DNA of 37,385 bases from a virus. Taxonomy: Duplodnaviria > Heunggongvirae > Uroviricota > Caudoviricetes. Made by a program: the position numbers and the translations under genes. A model generated the notes under the pieces. The model did no database searches. It was not told the origin of the DNA and saw only the letters and a list, made by a program, of their open reading frames with translations. Location: IMG/VR virus record IMGVR_UViG_2913123054_000004; one strand, given 5' to 3'. Below, in pieces: positions 1,099-11,699 of the stretch (within the stretch, counting starts at the first letter, position 1; every line of letters starts with the position of its first letter).

Positions 1099-2076
1099 TC
1101 ACTTTTTGGTAATGATGTCATCATTTGCTGCTGATTTTTTATCTACAAGTGAGCCTAAAATGTTAAATAAATTTGGAGGTGGCTGCGTTTTATCTGCGAA
1201 TGCAGAATTAGCTGACATATTCCAATCTTTAAACACATCAATAGCATCTTGTTTTGTTGCAGTTGAACCATAAATTTGTAAGAAGACCTCACCAAACATT
1301 AGAGCATGTTGTCTGTCTTTTCTTATGATTGCTTCATGTGTGTATTTTTTTGAATTGTTTAAACAAAAATAAGAAAGCCAAGAAAGTAATGCAACCCCAA
1401 GTAAGCCTCGAGTGAAATAATAAAAAAGTTCAATGGGGGTAGTATCTTTTATATCGATTTTATAAAAAAATGTTAAAAAGGCGGCGCTTATAGATAATAA
1501 TGAAAATAGTATTCCGGCTATCGCCCAATTGTAAGACATTGTAGTGAAGTCTTTATCGTCCTGCTGTAGTTTTGCTTTGACGCCTTGCACATATTCAGGA
1601 ACCTTTTCGTCAATTTTCTTTTGTTGAATTTTGCTTGAAAGTTCTTGGTTTTTAAACTGTAGTTCTTTGTTTTTGATGTGTTGGACTTTTAGCTGTGATA
1701 CTAGTTTTTCTTTACTTTCTATTTCATTTGACAATTCCATTTTCAACTTTTCCATTTGCTCTGAATGAGCGTTATGGTTTTTTTGAAACTCGCGTAGTTT
1801 ATGTTCTAATTCCTCAATTTTTAAAAGGTACTTATCTGCTTCACTGTTTTGCAATGATGTATGGTCAGACATGAAGGGGGCATACTTATATTCTTTTTTA
1901 GAAAAATTTCGACTGTAAGCATCAAATAGCATATCGAATTCATCAAACGCTAGAGAATCCAATAGGTTTTTCAAAGTATTATAGGTGTCATTGGTTAAAT
2001 GTGATTTTAATTCTCCTAATTTAATACTTCTAGACGTGTATTTTTCACTATTGCTTTTATAATCAGAACCACTCAT
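1099..2076 (-). CDS. Hypothetical protein: N-terminal coiled-coil region, two predicted transmembrane helices, C-terminal domain; AT-rich moron
   Basis: 325-aa ORF, markedly AT-rich and K/E/N-rich. Hydrophobic segments IAGILFSLLSISAAFLTFF and LLGVALLSWLSYF. Inserted between int and cI where P2 and 186 have no gene of this size. Confidence 0.6.
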   Translation of the reverse strand: MSGSDYKSNSEKYTSRSIKLGELKSHLTNDTYNTLKNLLDSLAFDEFDMLFDAYSRNFSKKEYKYAPFMSDHTSLQNSEADKYLLKIEELEHKLREFQKNHNAHSEQMEKLKMELSNEIESKEKLVSQLKVQHIKNKELQFKNQELSSKIQQKKIDEKVPEYVQGVKAKLQQDDKDFTTMSYNWAIAGILFSLLSISAAFLTFFYKIDIKDTTPIELFYYFTRGLLGVALLSWLSYFCLNNSKKYTHEAIIRKDRQHALMFGEVFLQIYGSTATKQDAIDVFKDWNMSANSAFADKTQPPPNLFNILGSLVDKKSAANDDIITKK

Positions 2077-2088
2077 TCCAATATCCTT

Positions 2089-3033
2089 TTATAATTCTTC
2101 TATCAGAATAAATTTGCATTTTGCAATAACATCAATATCTGAAATTTTACATTCAAATGATAAATCATTGTCTGAAATTTTTAATCTTCCTACAGGTATT
2201 CTAGTTAGGGTTCGAATGCTCACTTTTCCTTCTATTTTAACAATCCATTTACCATCTGTAATTTCATCGAATGATTGATTACATAGGTATGTTTTTTTTT
2301 CGGTGCTAACAATCAATGGTAATTGGATTGAGTCTGGTAGTAACGCTTTATCAAGCATATAGAAATTTGAATCAAATAGATTCCCGTCAGTAATTTTTTT
2401 GTGAGTAATAGCAATTACATCATTTCTTGCATCGTCAAACTTTGGGCCTTTACCAGTAGTTAGCCACATTAGTGAAGTACCCGTTTCGAGAGCGCACTTA
2501 ATTATCCAGTCTGAAGGAAAAACATCACGCATATATCTTGTGGCTAATGTGCTTTTTGAAATACCTAAGTGATCAGCTAAGGCTTGGCGAGTCTTATAAC
2601 CGTAAGCCCTAACAATTCGCTCTATTGCTTCCTTGCCACCCCGAGAATAATCAATGATGTTTTCATTGTCGAACTTTGGTTGTTTATAGTGAACGTCATG
2701 ATAAGAACCATCTTCGGAGTGTGTTTCAACATGCTGTTCTGGTGAAGGAGATGGCATTTGTTCGTCATCATCTGAACCAAATGCTAGCCATTTAATTGAT
2801 GCTCCTGTTTCCATTGAACAGATAACAATCCAATCTGCAGGAAATGTATCGCGGGCATATCTGTTAGCCATCGTGCTTTGGGAAATACCTAGATGGTTAC
2901 AGAATGCTTGGCGTGACTTGAAGCCATAAGCCATGAGTATCCGCTCGATTACTTTCTGACCACCACGATTTTGTATGACAACGGCTTTCATATCGTCATC
3001 AATATGGCGAAATGTGAATTTTTGAGTTGACAT
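2089..3033 (-). CDS. cI: 186 CI-type immunity repressor carrying two tandem copies of the N-terminal HTH domain
   Basis: 314 aa. Residues ~20-85 and ~125-195 are paralogous (IERILMAYGFKSRQAFCNHLGISQSTMANRY...CSMETGASIKWLAFG versus IERIVRAYGYKTRQALADHLGISKSTLATRY...CALETGTSLMWLTTG), separated by an acidic/Pro linker. C-terminal part resembles the 186 CI oligomerisation domain (WIVKIEGKVSIRTLTRIP...FEC). Confidence 0.8.
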   Translation of the reverse strand: MSTQKFTFRHIDDDMKAVVIQNRGGQKVIERILMAYGFKSRQAFCNHLGISQSTMANRYARDTFPADWIVICSMETGASIKWLAFGSDDDEQMPSPSPEQHVETHSEDGSYHDVHYKQPKFDNENIIDYSRGGKEAIERIVRAYGYKTRQALADHLGISKSTLATRYMRDVFPSDWIIKCALETGTSLMWLTTGKGPKFDDARNDVIAITHKKITDGNLFDSNFYMLDKALLPDSIQLPLIVSTEKKTYLCNQSFDEITDGKWIVKIEGKVSIRTLTRIPVGRLKISDNDLSFECKISDIDVIAKCKFILIEEL

Positions 3034-3062
3034 ATTCTTTATGTGAACCTATTCTCCGTTTT

Positions 3063-3079
3063 GTGATGTTGTTATCACG
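3063..3079. promoter_or_regulatory. Inverted repeat GTGAT-N6-ATCAC in the cI/apl intergenic region, candidate operator overlapping a possible rightward early promoter (TTGTGA ... TTAAAA)
   Basis: Dyad symmetry read directly. Sits between the repressor gene and the first rightward early gene. Confidence 0.3.
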
Positions 3080-3121
3080 ATTAAAACCAGCTCACCACAA
3101 GCTAAAAGGAGATGTTGCATC

Positions 3122-3343
3122 ATGACCCCTAACATTTCAATAACTCTGAATACGCCACACGTCACAATTGAGCGTTATAGCGAACTTACTGGTCTTTCTA
3201 TCGTCACCATCAACGATATGTTGGCTGATGGTCGCATCCCTCGCCATCGCCTTCGGAAAGACAAGAAAAGAGAAAAGGTGATGATCAACCTTGCTGCTCT
3301 TACCGTTGATGCACTTACTGATTGCAATGTTGTATTCAACTAG
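3122..3343 (+). CDS. apl: Apl/Cox-like excisionase and transcriptional regulator
   Basis: 73-aa basic protein as first rightward gene opposite cI. RBS AAAGGAGA upstream. Position equivalent to P2 cox / 186 apl. Confidence 0.6.
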
Positions 3344-3375
3344 TTCCATTTTGGGATACATCAGGGGTGTCGACC

Positions 3376-3885
3376 ATGTTTGATTACCAAGTTTCCAAAC
3401 ATCCACATTTTGATGAAGCCTGTCGTGCATTCGCACTGCGCCACAACCTGGTGCAACTGGCAGAACGTGCAGGCATGAATGTGCAGATTCTGCGGAACAA
3501 GCTGAACCCAGCTCAACCTCATTTATTAACCGCACCAGATATCTGGCTACTTACCGATCTGACTGAAGATTCAACGCTGGTAGACGGTTTTCTGGCACAG
3601 ATTCATTGTCTGCCATGTGTACCGATTAATGAGGTGGCAAAAGAGAAACTGCCACATTACGTCATGAGTGCAACCGCAGAGATCGGGCGTGTTGCTGCAG
3701 GTGCGGTATCTGGCGATGTAAAAACCAGTGCAGGTCGTCGTGATGCTATCAGCAGCATTAACTCTGTAACACGACTGATGGCGTTGGCTGCTGTTTCATT
3801 GCAGGCCCGTTTACAGGCTAACCCTGCGATGGCGAGTGCAGTTGATACCGTGACTGGCCTCGGTGCTTCATTCGGTTTGCTGTGA
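3376..3885 (+). CDS. cII: CII-like lysogeny establishment regulator (186 CII homolog)
   Basis: 169 aa from ATG at 3376 ([24 protein letters not shown]...[17 protein letters not shown]...GASFGLL); matches remembered 186 CII closely. The ORF track starts upstream at 3322, but the homolog start is 3376. Confidence 0.8.
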
Positions 3886-8534: not shown

Positions 8535-8554
8535 TACTGTATATAAAACCAGTG
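8535..8554. promoter_or_regulatory. LexA (SOS) box-like operator, TACTGTATATAAAACCAGTG, upstream of the DinI-family module
   Basis: CTGT-N8-CCAG with AT-rich spacer, one mismatch to CTGT-N8-ACAG. A perfect inverted half TATACAGTA follows at 8561-8569. Confidence 0.4.
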
Positions 8555-8596
8555 GTTAAGTATACAGTATTGTCTACCCACAGTGAGATAGGAGGG

Positions 8597-8788
8597 AAGA
8601 TGCAGGATTATTTTTTAGAGTCGTTGAAACTCCAGCGAATTGATTTTTTTCTTAAGCTTGTAGTGGCCAGTGAATGTAGTGATCAGGAAAAAGAGCTTGC
8701 GCTGCTTTGGATTTCAGAACTGACGGATGAACTCATGGCAAAAATCAGAACCCACGAATATAACCGCTCAATGGATGTTGTTAACTGA
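8597..8788 (+). CDS. Hypothetical small protein, first gene of the putative SOS-controlled module (possible Tum N-terminal-like part)
   Basis: 63-aa ORF from ATG 8597 (MQDYFLESLKLQ...); track alternative start at 8552. AT-rich. Immediately upstream of the DinI-like ORF. Confidence 0.4.
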   Translation, partial: KMQDYFLESLKLQRIDFFLKLVVASECSDQEKELALLWISELTDELMAKIRTHEYNRSMDVVN

Positions 8789-8798
8789 GGGGCAATTT

Positions 8799-9032
8799 AT
8801 GCGCATTGAAATAATGATCGATAAAGAGCAAAAAATTAGCCAGTCTACCCTGGACGCCCTTGAATCCGAGCTTTACCGCAATCTGCGCCCCCTGTATCCC
8901 AAAACGGTAATTCGCATCCGCAAAGGTAGCTCTAACGGTGTGGAACTGACCGGACTGAAACTGGACGAAGAAAAAAAACAAGTGATGAAAATTATGCAGA
9001 AGGTGTGGGAAGACGACAGCTGGCTGCATTAA
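8799..9032 (+). CDS. DinI-family protein (DNA-damage-inducible protein I-like; Tum C-terminal-like)
   Basis: 77 aa, MRIEIMIDKEQKISQSTLDALESELYRNL...MQKVWEDDSWLH, aligns with E. coli DinI (MRIEVTIAK...ETWESADDWF). RBS GAGGGG upstream. Confidence 0.75.
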   Translation: MRIEIMIDKEQKISQSTLDALESELYRNLRPLYPKTVIRIRKGSSNGVELTGLKLDEEKKQVMKIMQKVWEDDSWLH

Positions 9033-10047: not shown

Positions 10048-10962
10048 ATGCCATACCAATTGGTAGAGCTTAGCCCCGTAGCTAACGATCTTGAACAGTT
10101 AGGAACCAAAGAGAAGTTTTGGTTCTATTTCTCCGATGACACTGTAAATTTGCAGTTGTTTAAGTACTCTAGGCCAGGTACTGGCGAGCATTGGTCTGAA
10201 AAGTGTGCTGCTGAGTTATGTCATTTGCTTAACATTCCACATGCTAGCTATGATTTGGCGCGATACAATGGTCGATTCGGTGTGGTGACTCAGAATATCA
10301 TTCCATCTGGTTTCCGGATGGTAATGGGAAATGAAGTGCTTCACAGTTCGACATTCGATTATCCTGGGCCTTTACAAGCCGGGGAAAAGCCGGTAAGGGT
10401 CAGAGAACACACTGTCACAAGGGTCTTGGGTTGTTTAGATAGGGAATCTATCAAGCCTCCTCCGAGTGTATATGATCTAACCGGGCTAAATGCAGCAGAT
10501 GTATTTTGTGGATATTTGATGCTCGATGCACTTGTGAGTAATCAAGATCGCCACCATGAAAATTGGGCAATCATGCTTAACAATGAAACTGGTGAGCAGT
10601 TTTTGTGTCCAACATACGATCATGCCGCTAGTTTAGGAAGGGAGATGTTAGATGATGAGCGTAACGAACGGCTTAATACTAAAGATAAAAATCGACAAAT
10701 CCCATGTTTTGTAAGAAAAGCTCGCTCTGAGCTATTCAAAGCAAAAACTGATAAAAAGCCCTTGCTGACTGTTGAAGCATTTCAACATGCAGTTGAAGGG
10801 AGAGTTGCCGCTCGCGACCATTGGTTAGGTAAGTTGAGCGTTTTAACAGAAGATTCCATTACAGATGTGTTTAACCAAGTGCCTTCATCGTGTATATCCG
10901 ACAGTGCACGTAGATTTGCAACGTTAATGGTAATGGAAAATCGCAGAAGGTTACTAGAATGA
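10048..10962 (+). CDS. HipA-family serine/threonine kinase, short form (core kinase domain only)
   Basis: 304 aa. P-loop-like LGTKEKFWF near the N-terminus, catalytic-loop motif DALVSNQDRHHENWAIM, metal-binding LCPTYDHAAS; same order as in HipA/HipT. RBS AGGGA upstream. Confidence 0.8.
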   Translation: MPYQLVELSPVANDLEQLGTKEKFWFYFSDDTVNLQLFKYSRPGTGEHWSEKCAAELCHLLNIPHASYDLARYNGRFGVVTQNIIPSGFRMVMGNEVLHSSTFDYPGPLQAGEKPVRVREHTVTRVLGCLDRESIKPPPSVYDLTGLNAADVFCGYLMLDALVSNQDRHHENWAIMLNNETGEQFLCPTYDHAASLGREMLDDERNERLNTKDKNRQIPCFVRKARSELFKAKTDKKPLLTVEAFQHAVEGRVAARDHWLGKLSVLTEDSITDVFNQVPSSCISDSARRFATLMVMENRRRLLE

Positions 10963-11699
10963 CTAATACAAACTCCGTTTACGTCGCATGGCAGGCACCA
11001 GATACCAGAGACTGGCATGTTGTTGGTAACTTGCAAGAGCGCAAATCGGGGTATGTTTTCAGGTATACCAAAGGTGCTCTTAAATCTTCTAAATTTACAA
11101 AGTTTAGCGGCATGAGTGATGTTCGTGAAACTTATGTATCGGAAGAATTGTTTCCTCTTTTTAAAAATCGCCTTTTATCACCGAGACGTCCAGAGTATCC
11201 GAGTTTCATTAAATGGCTTGGATTTGAAGAAGATAAGGTAAATCCTATCGATATTCTTGCTCGCTCGGGAGGCTTACGAAGCACTGATCAGCTGCAGATT
11301 TTCAAAAAAATTGATTTTGATTCTGATGGTAACTTTGAGCATTTTTTCTTCTTACATGGACTTGGTTACTTGAATAGCTTAGCTAATGCTCGTGTATCTG
11401 AATTGAAACCGGGGCAAATTTTGCGTCTTTGCTTGGATCTTCAAAATGAATACGATGGGGATGCTGTTGTCGTTCGTGCAGATAAACCAGCTGAAATCGT
11501 TGGTTACTGCCCTAGGTATTTAAGTAATGACATCAAGAAGATGTTATTGGATGATCCAAAATCAATCACTTTAACGGTCGAAAAGATTAGTGATGATGCT
11601 CCTCATAACTATCGGTTATTATGTAAATTATCAGGGGTACTAAGCCAAGCCTGTCAATCGACGCTGATTCCTCAAGATGAGTTTGAACCTATTGAGTAA
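10959..11699 (+). CDS. HipS-like (HipA N-terminal subdomain-like) protein with C-terminal HIRAN domain; putative partner/antitoxin of the kinase
   Basis: 246 aa. Start overlaps kinase stop (ATGA). N-terminal half shows HipA N-subdomain-like patterns (EELFPLFKNRLLSPRRP, PIDILARSGGLRSTD). C-terminal ~90 aa has HIRAN hallmarks (LQNEYDGDAVVV...EIVGYCPRYL). Confidence 0.75.
   Translation: MTNTNSVYVAWQAPDTRDWHVVGNLQERKSGYVFRYTKGALKSSKFTKFSGMSDVRETYVSEELFPLFKNRLLSPRRPEYPSFIKWLGFEEDKVNPIDILARSGGLRSTDQLQIFKKIDFDSDGNFEHFFFLHGLGYLNSLANARVSELKPGQILRLCLDLQNEYDGDAVVVRADKPAEIVGYCPRYLSNDIKKMLLDDPKSITLTVEKISDDAPHNYRLLCKLSGVLSQACQSTLIPQDEFEPIE

Follow-up and report, generated by a model that had tools for sequence, protein, structure and literature searches.

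How an immunity repressor of the phage 186 type comes to carry two DNA-binding heads on a single chain, and what the second head does, are the questions raised by the cI gene of IMG/VR virus record IMGVR_UViG_2913123054_000004, a stretch of 37,385 nucleotides of DNA from a virus of the Caudoviricetes (hereafter the window, in which all positions are counted unless stated otherwise). The gene (2089-3033, minus strand) opens with ATG and encodes a CI protein of 314 amino acids, which was identified from its open reading frame (ORF), its Pfam families, its match to the 186 CI structure 2FJR and RefSeq, where the same coding sequence appears in an Escherichia coli genome (98.8% identical) as 'phage repressor protein CI'. 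The initial annotation took the protein to be a 186-type CI with an internally duplicated DNA-binding domain, acting as a covalent pseudo-dimer. The comparisons reported here bear out the architecture but point to another history, namely that CI is a graft of a heterologous head, together with its operators, rather than a fresh tandem copy.

Pfam and BLASTP agree that two paralogous helix-turn-helix (HTH) domains stand ahead of one CI-type C-terminal domain. PF07022 (Phage_CI_repr) matches CI in two stretches (E 2.2e-57) and PF16452 (Phage_CI_C) matches residues 209-307 (E 1.9e-31). When the two halves were compared by BLASTP, residues 14-86 aligned with residues 122-194 over 73 amino acids without a gap, at 55% identity and 78% positives (E 7e-32); the halves are homologous, and the ranges first proposed for them (about 20-85 and 125-195) were right. 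The extra length over 186 CI, which has 192 amino acids (coding sequence of 579 nt), consists of an additional N-terminal HTH and a linker. 2FJR covers only residues 135-305 (E 1.5e-25), and the N-terminal domain (NTD) of 186 CI aligns with residues 135-198 and not with the first HTH.

Read from its N terminus, the chain begins with a tail (codons 1-13; 2995-3033, minus strand) that is conserved in the alignment and whose DNA also holds the -35 box of the putative promoter pR and an upstream operator-like element. The first HTH, D1, follows (residues 14-86; 2776-2994, minus strand; hmmsearch and BLASTP) and belongs to a lineage designated alpha; codons 1-22, that is the tail with codons 14-22, encode the conserved sequence MSTxK.TFRH.... 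An acidic linker rich in proline and serine (residues 87-121; 2671-2775, minus strand), predicted to be disordered from model confidence, substitution rates and alignment, leads to the second HTH, D2 (residues 122-198; 2440-2670, minus strand). Its best Pfam stretch (135-198) and the alignment with the 186 NTD put D2 in the canonical place beside the C-terminal oligomerisation domain, Phage_CI_C (residues 209-307; 2113-2409, minus strand), which was recognised by PF16452 and by superposition on 2fkd_A. The ORFs, family matches and a near-identical locus in RefSeq show that cI heads a leftward lysogenic operon ending in int, opposite apl-cII-fil. In its two domain families, the fold of its C-terminal domain and its gene context CI fits the 186-type family; it departs from 186 CI in having two HTH domains on one chain, and is filed as a variant architecture inside that family.

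The descent of the two heads was traced through single-domain relatives, for whose NTD lineages the labels alpha, beta, gamma and zeta were coined in this analysis. Over residues 1-86, CI shares 78% identity with the same residues of P0069, a single-domain CI of 208 amino acids from Salmonella diarizonae (81% over the D1 domain proper). Its residues 120-314 share 80.5% identity with residues 5-199 of P0028, a single-domain CI of 199 amino acids; the best single-domain NTD match of D2 is P0039 (74%). Because each domain is closer to a single-domain CI (78-82% and 74-80%, respectively) than to its partner (55%), the protein arose by grafting of a foreign NTD onto a complete CI. D1 and D2 are not each other's closest relatives, as the copies of a tandem duplication would be, and the proposal of an internal duplication does not stand as an account of their history. 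The graft junction lies at about the old start codon, and the tail of a single-domain protein (MSTSKYPNEI...) is still recognisable in the linker directly ahead of D2.

The same relationship extends well beyond this chain. Two HTH domains are present in 45 of the 120 closest protein clusters (clustered at 90% identity), and in all 45 of these doubles the nearest single-domain NTD is 69-96% identical to D1 and 73-95% identical to D2, compared with 46-64% within the chain. In a neighbour-joining tree most D1 domains group with the single-domain alpha NTDs, apart from D2. At least four lineages are represented among the D1 domains of the 45 doubles, alpha in 36 (including the window CI), zeta in five, gamma in two and one other lineage in two, so that the same kind of graft has happened repeatedly, and always at the N terminus. 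PSP3 differs in this respect; its CI domains are 52% identical to each other and only 40% and 50% identical to their nearest sampled single-domain NTDs, which makes a true internal duplication plausible for this phage.

The switch DNA beside cI is mosaic in the same way as the protein, combining the same two lineages, which also argues for a graft. In all eight double loci of the main clade the cI-apl spacer is 88-89 bp, even though their CIs are just 54-61% identical. The left part of the switch (cI codons 1-22 with intergenic bases 1-33) is 62-76% identical to alpha singles, against 20-64% to beta loci, and contains a -35 box TTGACA overlapping the cI start codon, a -10 box TATTCT and the elements TGGCGAAATGTGA and CTCCGTTTTGTGA. 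The right part (intergenic bases 34-88 with apl) is 60-80% identical to beta singles, against 7-38% to alpha singles; the right half at 3072-3121 (plus strand), GTCACGATT...GCTCACCACAAGC...AGGAG, was assigned to the beta lineage by identity (60-80% against 31-38%) and by-eye alignment. Moreover, Apl is 75-79% identical to the Apl of beta single loci, against 27% to that of an alpha single. Alpha singles such as P0069 therefore match the D1 side in NTD, tail and pR-side DNA, and beta singles (for example P0028, L015-type, 198-199 amino acids) match the D2 side in CI, apl-side DNA and Apl, each with one HTH per chain. These two single-domain lineages of enterobacterial P2-like prophages are the apparent parents of the window locus.

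Within the left part of the switch, the two promoter boxes make up the putative lytic promoter pR (3027-3055, plus strand; TTGACA 3027-3032, a 17-nt spacer and TATTCT 3050-3055), which gave 10 of 12 matches in a consensus scan, lies at a position equivalent to the annotated 186 pR and is conserved in related loci. The operator-like element TGGCGAAATGTGA (3005-3017, plus strand), inside cI codons 6-10, was found by comparison of loci; it is conserved in all main-clade doubles, differs by one base in the single-domain alpha loci L079 and L047, and is a putative binding element for CI. The second operator-like element, CTCCGTTTTGTGA (3054-3066, plus strand), was recognised in the same way over the pR -10 box and transcription start, and is common to all main-clade doubles and to alpha singles (as CTCCGTTGTGTGA). 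TGTGA cores are present at 3013, 3042 and 3062, with spacings of 29 and 20 bp, as in alpha singles. These spacings neither match nor exclude the phasing described for 186 (PMC3675496), and a simple 21-bp operator phasing as in 186 was set aside. Codons 1-22 of cI (2968-3033) show low synonymous divergence (dS 0.09-0.24, compared with 0.31-1.15 in D1), which suggests constraint at the DNA level and, hence, regulatory DNA within these codons. On the opposite strand, a possible lysogenic promoter pL (3112-3140, minus strand; TTGAAA 3140-3135, a 17-nt spacer and CAACAT 3117-3112) is tentatively placed by analogy with the annotated 186 pL over the start of apl; it was missed by the promoter consensus scan.

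Beta single loci have clear dyad operators, GTNCCCAWWTGGGNAC, in cI codons 5-10 and just after the -10 box, and these resemble the central dyad in the annotated CI-binding region at 186 pR. The doubles have no such dyads at pR. In the window, the 186-type sequence ATTCAC-N5-GTGAAT has no match with up to two mismatches, and TCAC/GTGA pairs occur at chance level whichever spacing from 0 to 12 is taken; both were sought as distal operators of the FL, FR or pB kind. The expectation that immunity specificity has changed relative to 186 is almost certainly right, if trivially so, no 186-type operator having been found in the window. The sequence TTCCATTTTGGGAT (3344-3357), directly after the apl stop codon, was considered as a beta-type D2 site at the position of 186 FR and rejected, since its conservation extends to loci of every NTD type, alpha singles among them; rather than being a CI site, it may contribute to a CII-dependent promoter.

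The two-HTH design is also widely distributed. A search of related prophages for this layout found the D1-linker-D2 DNA in 34 of 5,426 complete E. coli genomes, and the clusters of doubles come from E. coli, Salmonella, Klebsiella, Enterobacter, Citrobacter, Kosakonia and Edwardsiella. A search of 1.84 billion representative proteins gave 150 matches, of which 26 show two matched stretches, with named sources that include Pantoea, Hafnia, Citrobacter, Edwardsiella and Shewanella, and the six full-length two-stretch proteins tested all contain PF07022 twice together with PF16452. Long proteins with four to seven matched stretches are not multi-HTH repressors and belong to unrelated repeat proteins, for example SUMO-like arrays. 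A scan of one genome per species gave only two double loci, and further double loci were gathered individually. Isolated phages with a double CI are PSP3 (NP_958086.1, 286 amino acids), SEN1, vB_EcoM-613R3, Midge, SW9, SI22 and Klebsiella 4LV2017, and prophages of the reference strains CFT073 and E2348/69 have one too. Since isolated phages carry this architecture as their CI, it represents a working repressor design. No description of a doubled CI NTD was found in the searchable literature; in a 2011 survey the CIs of PsP3 and PhiECO3 (CFT073) were noted merely as 'longer' than 186 CI, which was put down to the C-terminal domain (PMC3448106). The double CI is real and widespread, an unstudied form of a repressor that is otherwise well known.

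Both heads are under purifying selection, and the linker evolves almost neutrally. Ratios of nonsynonymous to synonymous divergence (dN/dS), calculated by the Nei-Gojobori method for pairs of double loci, are 0.01-0.055 for D1, 0.10-0.18 for D2 and 0.4-1.0 for the linker. The recognition-helix residues S159, S161, T162, R166 and Y167 of D2 are invariant in 42 aligned doubles, and within the main clade the D1 helix (GISQSTMANRYARDTFPADW) hardly varies; the linker varies in both length and sequence among the aligned doubles. An AlphaFold2 monomer model (mean predicted local distance difference test, pLDDT, 78.6; predicted template modelling score, pTM, 0.42) contains two helical bundles and a beta-rich C-terminal domain. 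The pLDDT is 75-88 in the helical D1, 90-96 in the C-terminal domain and below 50 for residues 89-126, and the modelled C-terminal domain superposes on that of 186 (2fkd_A) with a template modelling score of 0.90 and a root mean square deviation of 1.8 Å. The predicted architecture is that of two beads on a flexible string of about 38 residues, and not that of a fixed pseudo-dimer.

The reading that we favour, with confidence a little better than even, is that CI is a composite repressor, in which D1 was grafted onto a complete CI through a flexible linker, bringing its own tail and pR-side operator DNA, and D2 provides a second specificity. The C-terminal domain would still build 186-like dimers and higher oligomers, with D2 in its usual outward-facing position. 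The tethered D1 would recognise the TGTGA-type elements around pR (3005-3017 and 3054-3066) and set the prophage's own immunity; from the match of both head and DNA to alpha loci, pR is probably read by D1. D2 would stay a DNA-binding head and add another specificity to the same chain. Its candidate targets are the right arm of a conserved everted dyad between cI and apl, together with D2-lineage DNA towards pL, and, in some relatives, a D2-lineage operator kept inside cI. In addition, D2 may bind the operators of incoming D2-lineage phages, which would result in broader superinfection immunity.

Several relatives of the window locus bear on this second specificity. Six of them have a beta-type operator-like 16-mer (e.g. 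GATCTCATTTGGGGAC) inside cI, 300-360 bp into the gene, in the codons that span the D1-D2 junction, where the surrounding linker is otherwise fast-evolving. In the coordinates of those loci the site is at 2800-2815 in L076, where it scores 24.0 of a possible 25.9 bits, and at 2863 in L074, 3354 in L004, 2854 in L073, 3363 in L005 and 2800 in L078, with scores of 13.9-18.1 bits for these five. It recalls the FL site inside the cI gene of 186, and is absent from the window cI. The D2 helix of the window CI (SKSTLATRYMRD) is of the type found in gamma singles, whose dyads are GTGA-type. Moreover, E2348/69 (L083, NC_011601.1 855128-856671) and ZH48 (L084) have two tandem cI genes, of which the apl-adjacent one encodes a gamma single CI of 189 amino acids, has its own TCAC-N5-GTGA operators and owns the switch, and the second encodes an intact double CI of 307 amino acids that has lost its own pR-side DNA. 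Judged from these loci, repressor modules have evidently been added in front of older ones, with the older ones kept. A broader proposal, possible though on the whole doubtful, is that P2/186-like prophages broaden or re-target their superinfection immunity by accumulating the heads of heteroimmune lineages, either fused, as in the window CI and the four or more independent grafts, or as a second cI, as in E2348/69 and ZH48. If so, one oligomeric CI wheel would show two specificities, run a hybrid switch with halves of different phage origin and repress incoming phages of the second lineage.

A number of points weigh against the composite reading. The assignment of operators to domains comes entirely from the comparison of loci. 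A position weight matrix of the beta operator peaks in the window at 10.9 bits, at an unrelated place, and neither a D2-lineage operator nor a TCAC-N3-5-GTGA cluster was found in the window; this weak match is also the nearest that the window comes to the CAATTG-centred pR-type dyad of 186, a beta-type site. The invariant residues of D2 could reflect the needs of folding, or of packing on the C-terminal domain, and not DNA contact. The right arm of the dyad, TCACGA, which is partnerless in beta singles, could belong to Apl or to a promoter rather than to CI. The recognition helices of the two heads are alike (SQSTMANRYAR in D1, SKSTLATRYMR in D2), and because of this similarity their specificities may overlap. 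Finally, the AlphaFold model, with the pTM given above, gives nothing on the placement or packing of D1 relative to D2.

The covalent pseudo-dimer put forward in the initial annotation, in which D1 and D2 of one chain fill both half-sites of one operator with a new geometry, we consider unlikely. The dyad reported there is present as TTGTGA-N8-TCACGA (3061-3080, plus strand) and is the sole GTGA-N8-TCAC in the window, a single match that also equals the chance expectation. Its arms are conserved and its spacer is variable in eight related loci (TTGTGA-N8/9-TCACRA), including CFT073. The half-sites face the opposite way to those of the TCAC-N3-5-GTGA dyads of single-domain relatives and of ATTCAC-N5-GTGAAT in 186, and are more widely spaced; the arms trace to the two parental lineages, the left one occurring in alpha singles without the right, and the right one in beta singles without the left. 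The D2 helix of the window CI is of the type in relatives that read GTGA half-sites, and the reading of an asymmetric site by two domains of one chain is known from nature (PMC9283540). From these comparisons, the dyad is the best evidence that two heads might cooperate on one site. Nevertheless, the linker of about 38 residues, being disordered, near-neutral and variable in length, is no structured connection and would impose no fixed geometry. The pR-side elements at 3005-3017 and 3054-3066 are as in single-domain alpha loci, with no second arm, and independent doubles such as L076 retain the D1-lineage switch whole and unchanged. In addition, the intact C-terminal domain would still dimerise, giving four heads per dimer.

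Quite improbable is the view that the double CI is a relic of immunity-module replacement, in which the old NTD, D2, serves as a spacer or scaffold for the C-terminal domain and does not bind DNA. D2 evolves under far lower dN/dS than the adjacent linker, its five recognition-helix residues are invariant across 42 diverse doubles, the four or more independent grafts have all retained it, and several relatives keep a near-perfect D2-lineage operator inside cI. Such a relic would nevertheless be consistent with a pR side that is wholly of D1 lineage, with the lack of a detectable D2-lineage operator in the window, and with the tandem cI genes of E2348/69, which show immunity modules placed ahead of old ones.

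A further explanation turns on the induction of the prophage. A LexA-box-like site, TACTGTATATAAAACCAGTG (8535-8554; 0.01 matches expected by chance), is followed by two overlapping small ORFs of 78 amino acids (phrog_698) and 101 amino acids (phrog_189, DinI-like, profile positions 66-148 of 151), the whole occupying 8535-9032 (plus strand). From its motif and family matches this segment is probably an SOS antirepressor module of the Tum type that acts on CI, with its coding sequence possibly divided between two frames, and it suggests 186-style SOS induction through an antirepressor; its position after the replication gene matches that of 186 tum. The extra NTD might then alter the inactivation of CI by SOS-controlled Tum-like proteins or by the antirepressors of other prophages, either by serving as a decoy, with a higher induction threshold as the result, or by offering a second handle. 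Trans-acting antirepressors are reported to cross-talk between enterobacterial prophages (PMC3121763). This explanation is very unlikely, as D1 came with its own operator DNA, which is more simply explained by DNA binding.

That the two-domain layout is an artefact of assembly duplication, of a frameshifted fusion of adjacent genes or of an internal start giving two proteins can be virtually dismissed, since the ORF is intact in seven or more independent complete genomes and in isolated phages, and the layout recurs in 45 diverged clusters, of which the 42 aligned at full length have linkers of varied length, even if start calls vary and the CFT073 homologue begins at an internal Met in RefSeq. 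As DNA, the D1 and D2 coding sequences share just 63.5% identity (45% in third codon positions) and nowhere agree for more than 10 nt in a row, and a collapsed or duplicated assembly, which had been named as a possible source of the long ORF, therefore cannot explain the two copies. The int-cargo-cI-apl block is present at 91-99% nucleotide identity in seven independently completed E. coli genomes. An internal start making a separate protein of D2 and the C-terminal domain was rejected, there being neither a conserved Met nor a Shine-Dalgarno sequence in the linker before D2. For the CFT073 double cI (L087, NC_004431.1 911434-912303), RefSeq uses the internal Met to give 289 amino acids, and the architecture is truncated in the database; the conserved start 19 codons upstream gives 308 amino acids and regains the usual 88-bp spacer.

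Compared with known systems, the window CI is composed of the same two Pfam families as 186 CI (PDB 2FJR, 2FKD), with which D2 and the C-terminal domain align and the C-terminal domain superposes. The gene order int-cI, apl-cII-fil is shared with 186, and a pR-like promoter abuts the cI start in the window too. The differences from 186 are the extra N-terminal HTH and the disordered linker of about 38 amino acids, which 186 CI does not have, a cI-apl spacer of 88 bp compared with 129 bp, and an unrelated Apl (26% identity). PSP3 CI and CFT073 PhiECO3 CI have PF07022 twice and PF16452, like the window CI. The CFT073 CI belongs to the same main clade, with the same switch and dyad; in PSP3 the Apl analogue is unrelated and the spacer measures 121 bp, and P0146, a PSP3-type CI, is about 32% identical to the main-clade doubles.

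Covalently joined heads are also met outside this family. Single-chain 434 repressors are reportedly engineered from HTH heads joined on one chain, without an oligomerisation domain, and designed for one operator. The lambda-186 hybrid repressor (PDB 7JVT), also engineered, shows that phage HTH heads are modular and can be swapped onto the 186 C-terminal domain. These repressors are artificial, whereas the arrangement in the window CI is natural. The repressor of mycobacteriophage TipsytheTRex is another natural phage immunity repressor with two covalently linked DNA-binding domains, but of an unrelated fold and family, with an HTH and a 'stoperator' domain, and it binds as a monomer; its authors propose that dual domains enable the evolution of other immune specificities (PMC9283540). 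In comparison, the window CI has kept its oligomerisation domain and has two homologous HTH domains.

The well-known 186 CI is among the few repressors with a worked-out higher-order mechanism, in which a wheel of seven dimers wraps and loops DNA. In this 14-mer wheel the wrapped operators are two helical turns apart (PMC3675496). A natural and widespread CI with four heads per dimer, of two ancestries, raises the question of how such a wheel reads DNA, and the double CIs provide a ready-made test of whether immunity evolves by the grafting of whole heads plus operators and not by point mutation. Should phages of its parental lineage be repressed by the second head as well, a lysogen would gain immunity to two phage groups from a single gene, with consequences for how prophages compete in E. 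coli, Salmonella and Klebsiella and for the prediction of phage host range from genomes. The doubles are annotated as plain 'CI', sometimes from a wrong internal start as in CFT073, leaving the architecture invisible to users of the annotation.

Of the genes next to cI, the apl/cox-like gene (3122-3343, plus strand) encodes 73 amino acids and matches phrog_575, Cox-like excisionase and repressor (E 9e-31), and cII (3376-3885, plus strand), the establishment activator, matches PF06892 (Phage_CP76, E 1.3e-41). Between cI and int there is an AT-rich cargo gene (1099-2076, minus strand; 325 amino acids), which matches phrog_2628 and otherwise has only weak Pfam matches to coiled-coil and membrane proteins; PADLOC gave no match for it. 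The CFT073 cargo protein is 55% identical to it over the C-terminal 178 amino acids. The same slot in relatives holds GmrSD and HEPN (L002, L072), a KAP NTPase (E2348/69), an AAA_15/AAA_21 ATPase with DUF4276 (L078) or other proteins of about 320 amino acids, and looks like a hotspot for defence genes or morons.

A LexA-box-like sequence, TACTGTATATATAACCAGTG (1047-1066; 0.01 matches expected in the window), is found in the gap that separates the cargo gene from int, with the int start (minus strand) 30-50 bp downstream of it, and suggests that int expression may be under SOS control. The window starts inside int (1-1017), which places attL outside it. In SA53-3 (L001), a near-identical genome, rcdA-ybjJ adjoins the prophage integrase, a site that is also used in CFT073. 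After the early region, two ORFs (10048-11699, plus strand) encode 304 and 246 amino acids; the first has a DRHHENW motif, which we take to resemble that of HipA-family kinases, and it may be a toxin-like moron.

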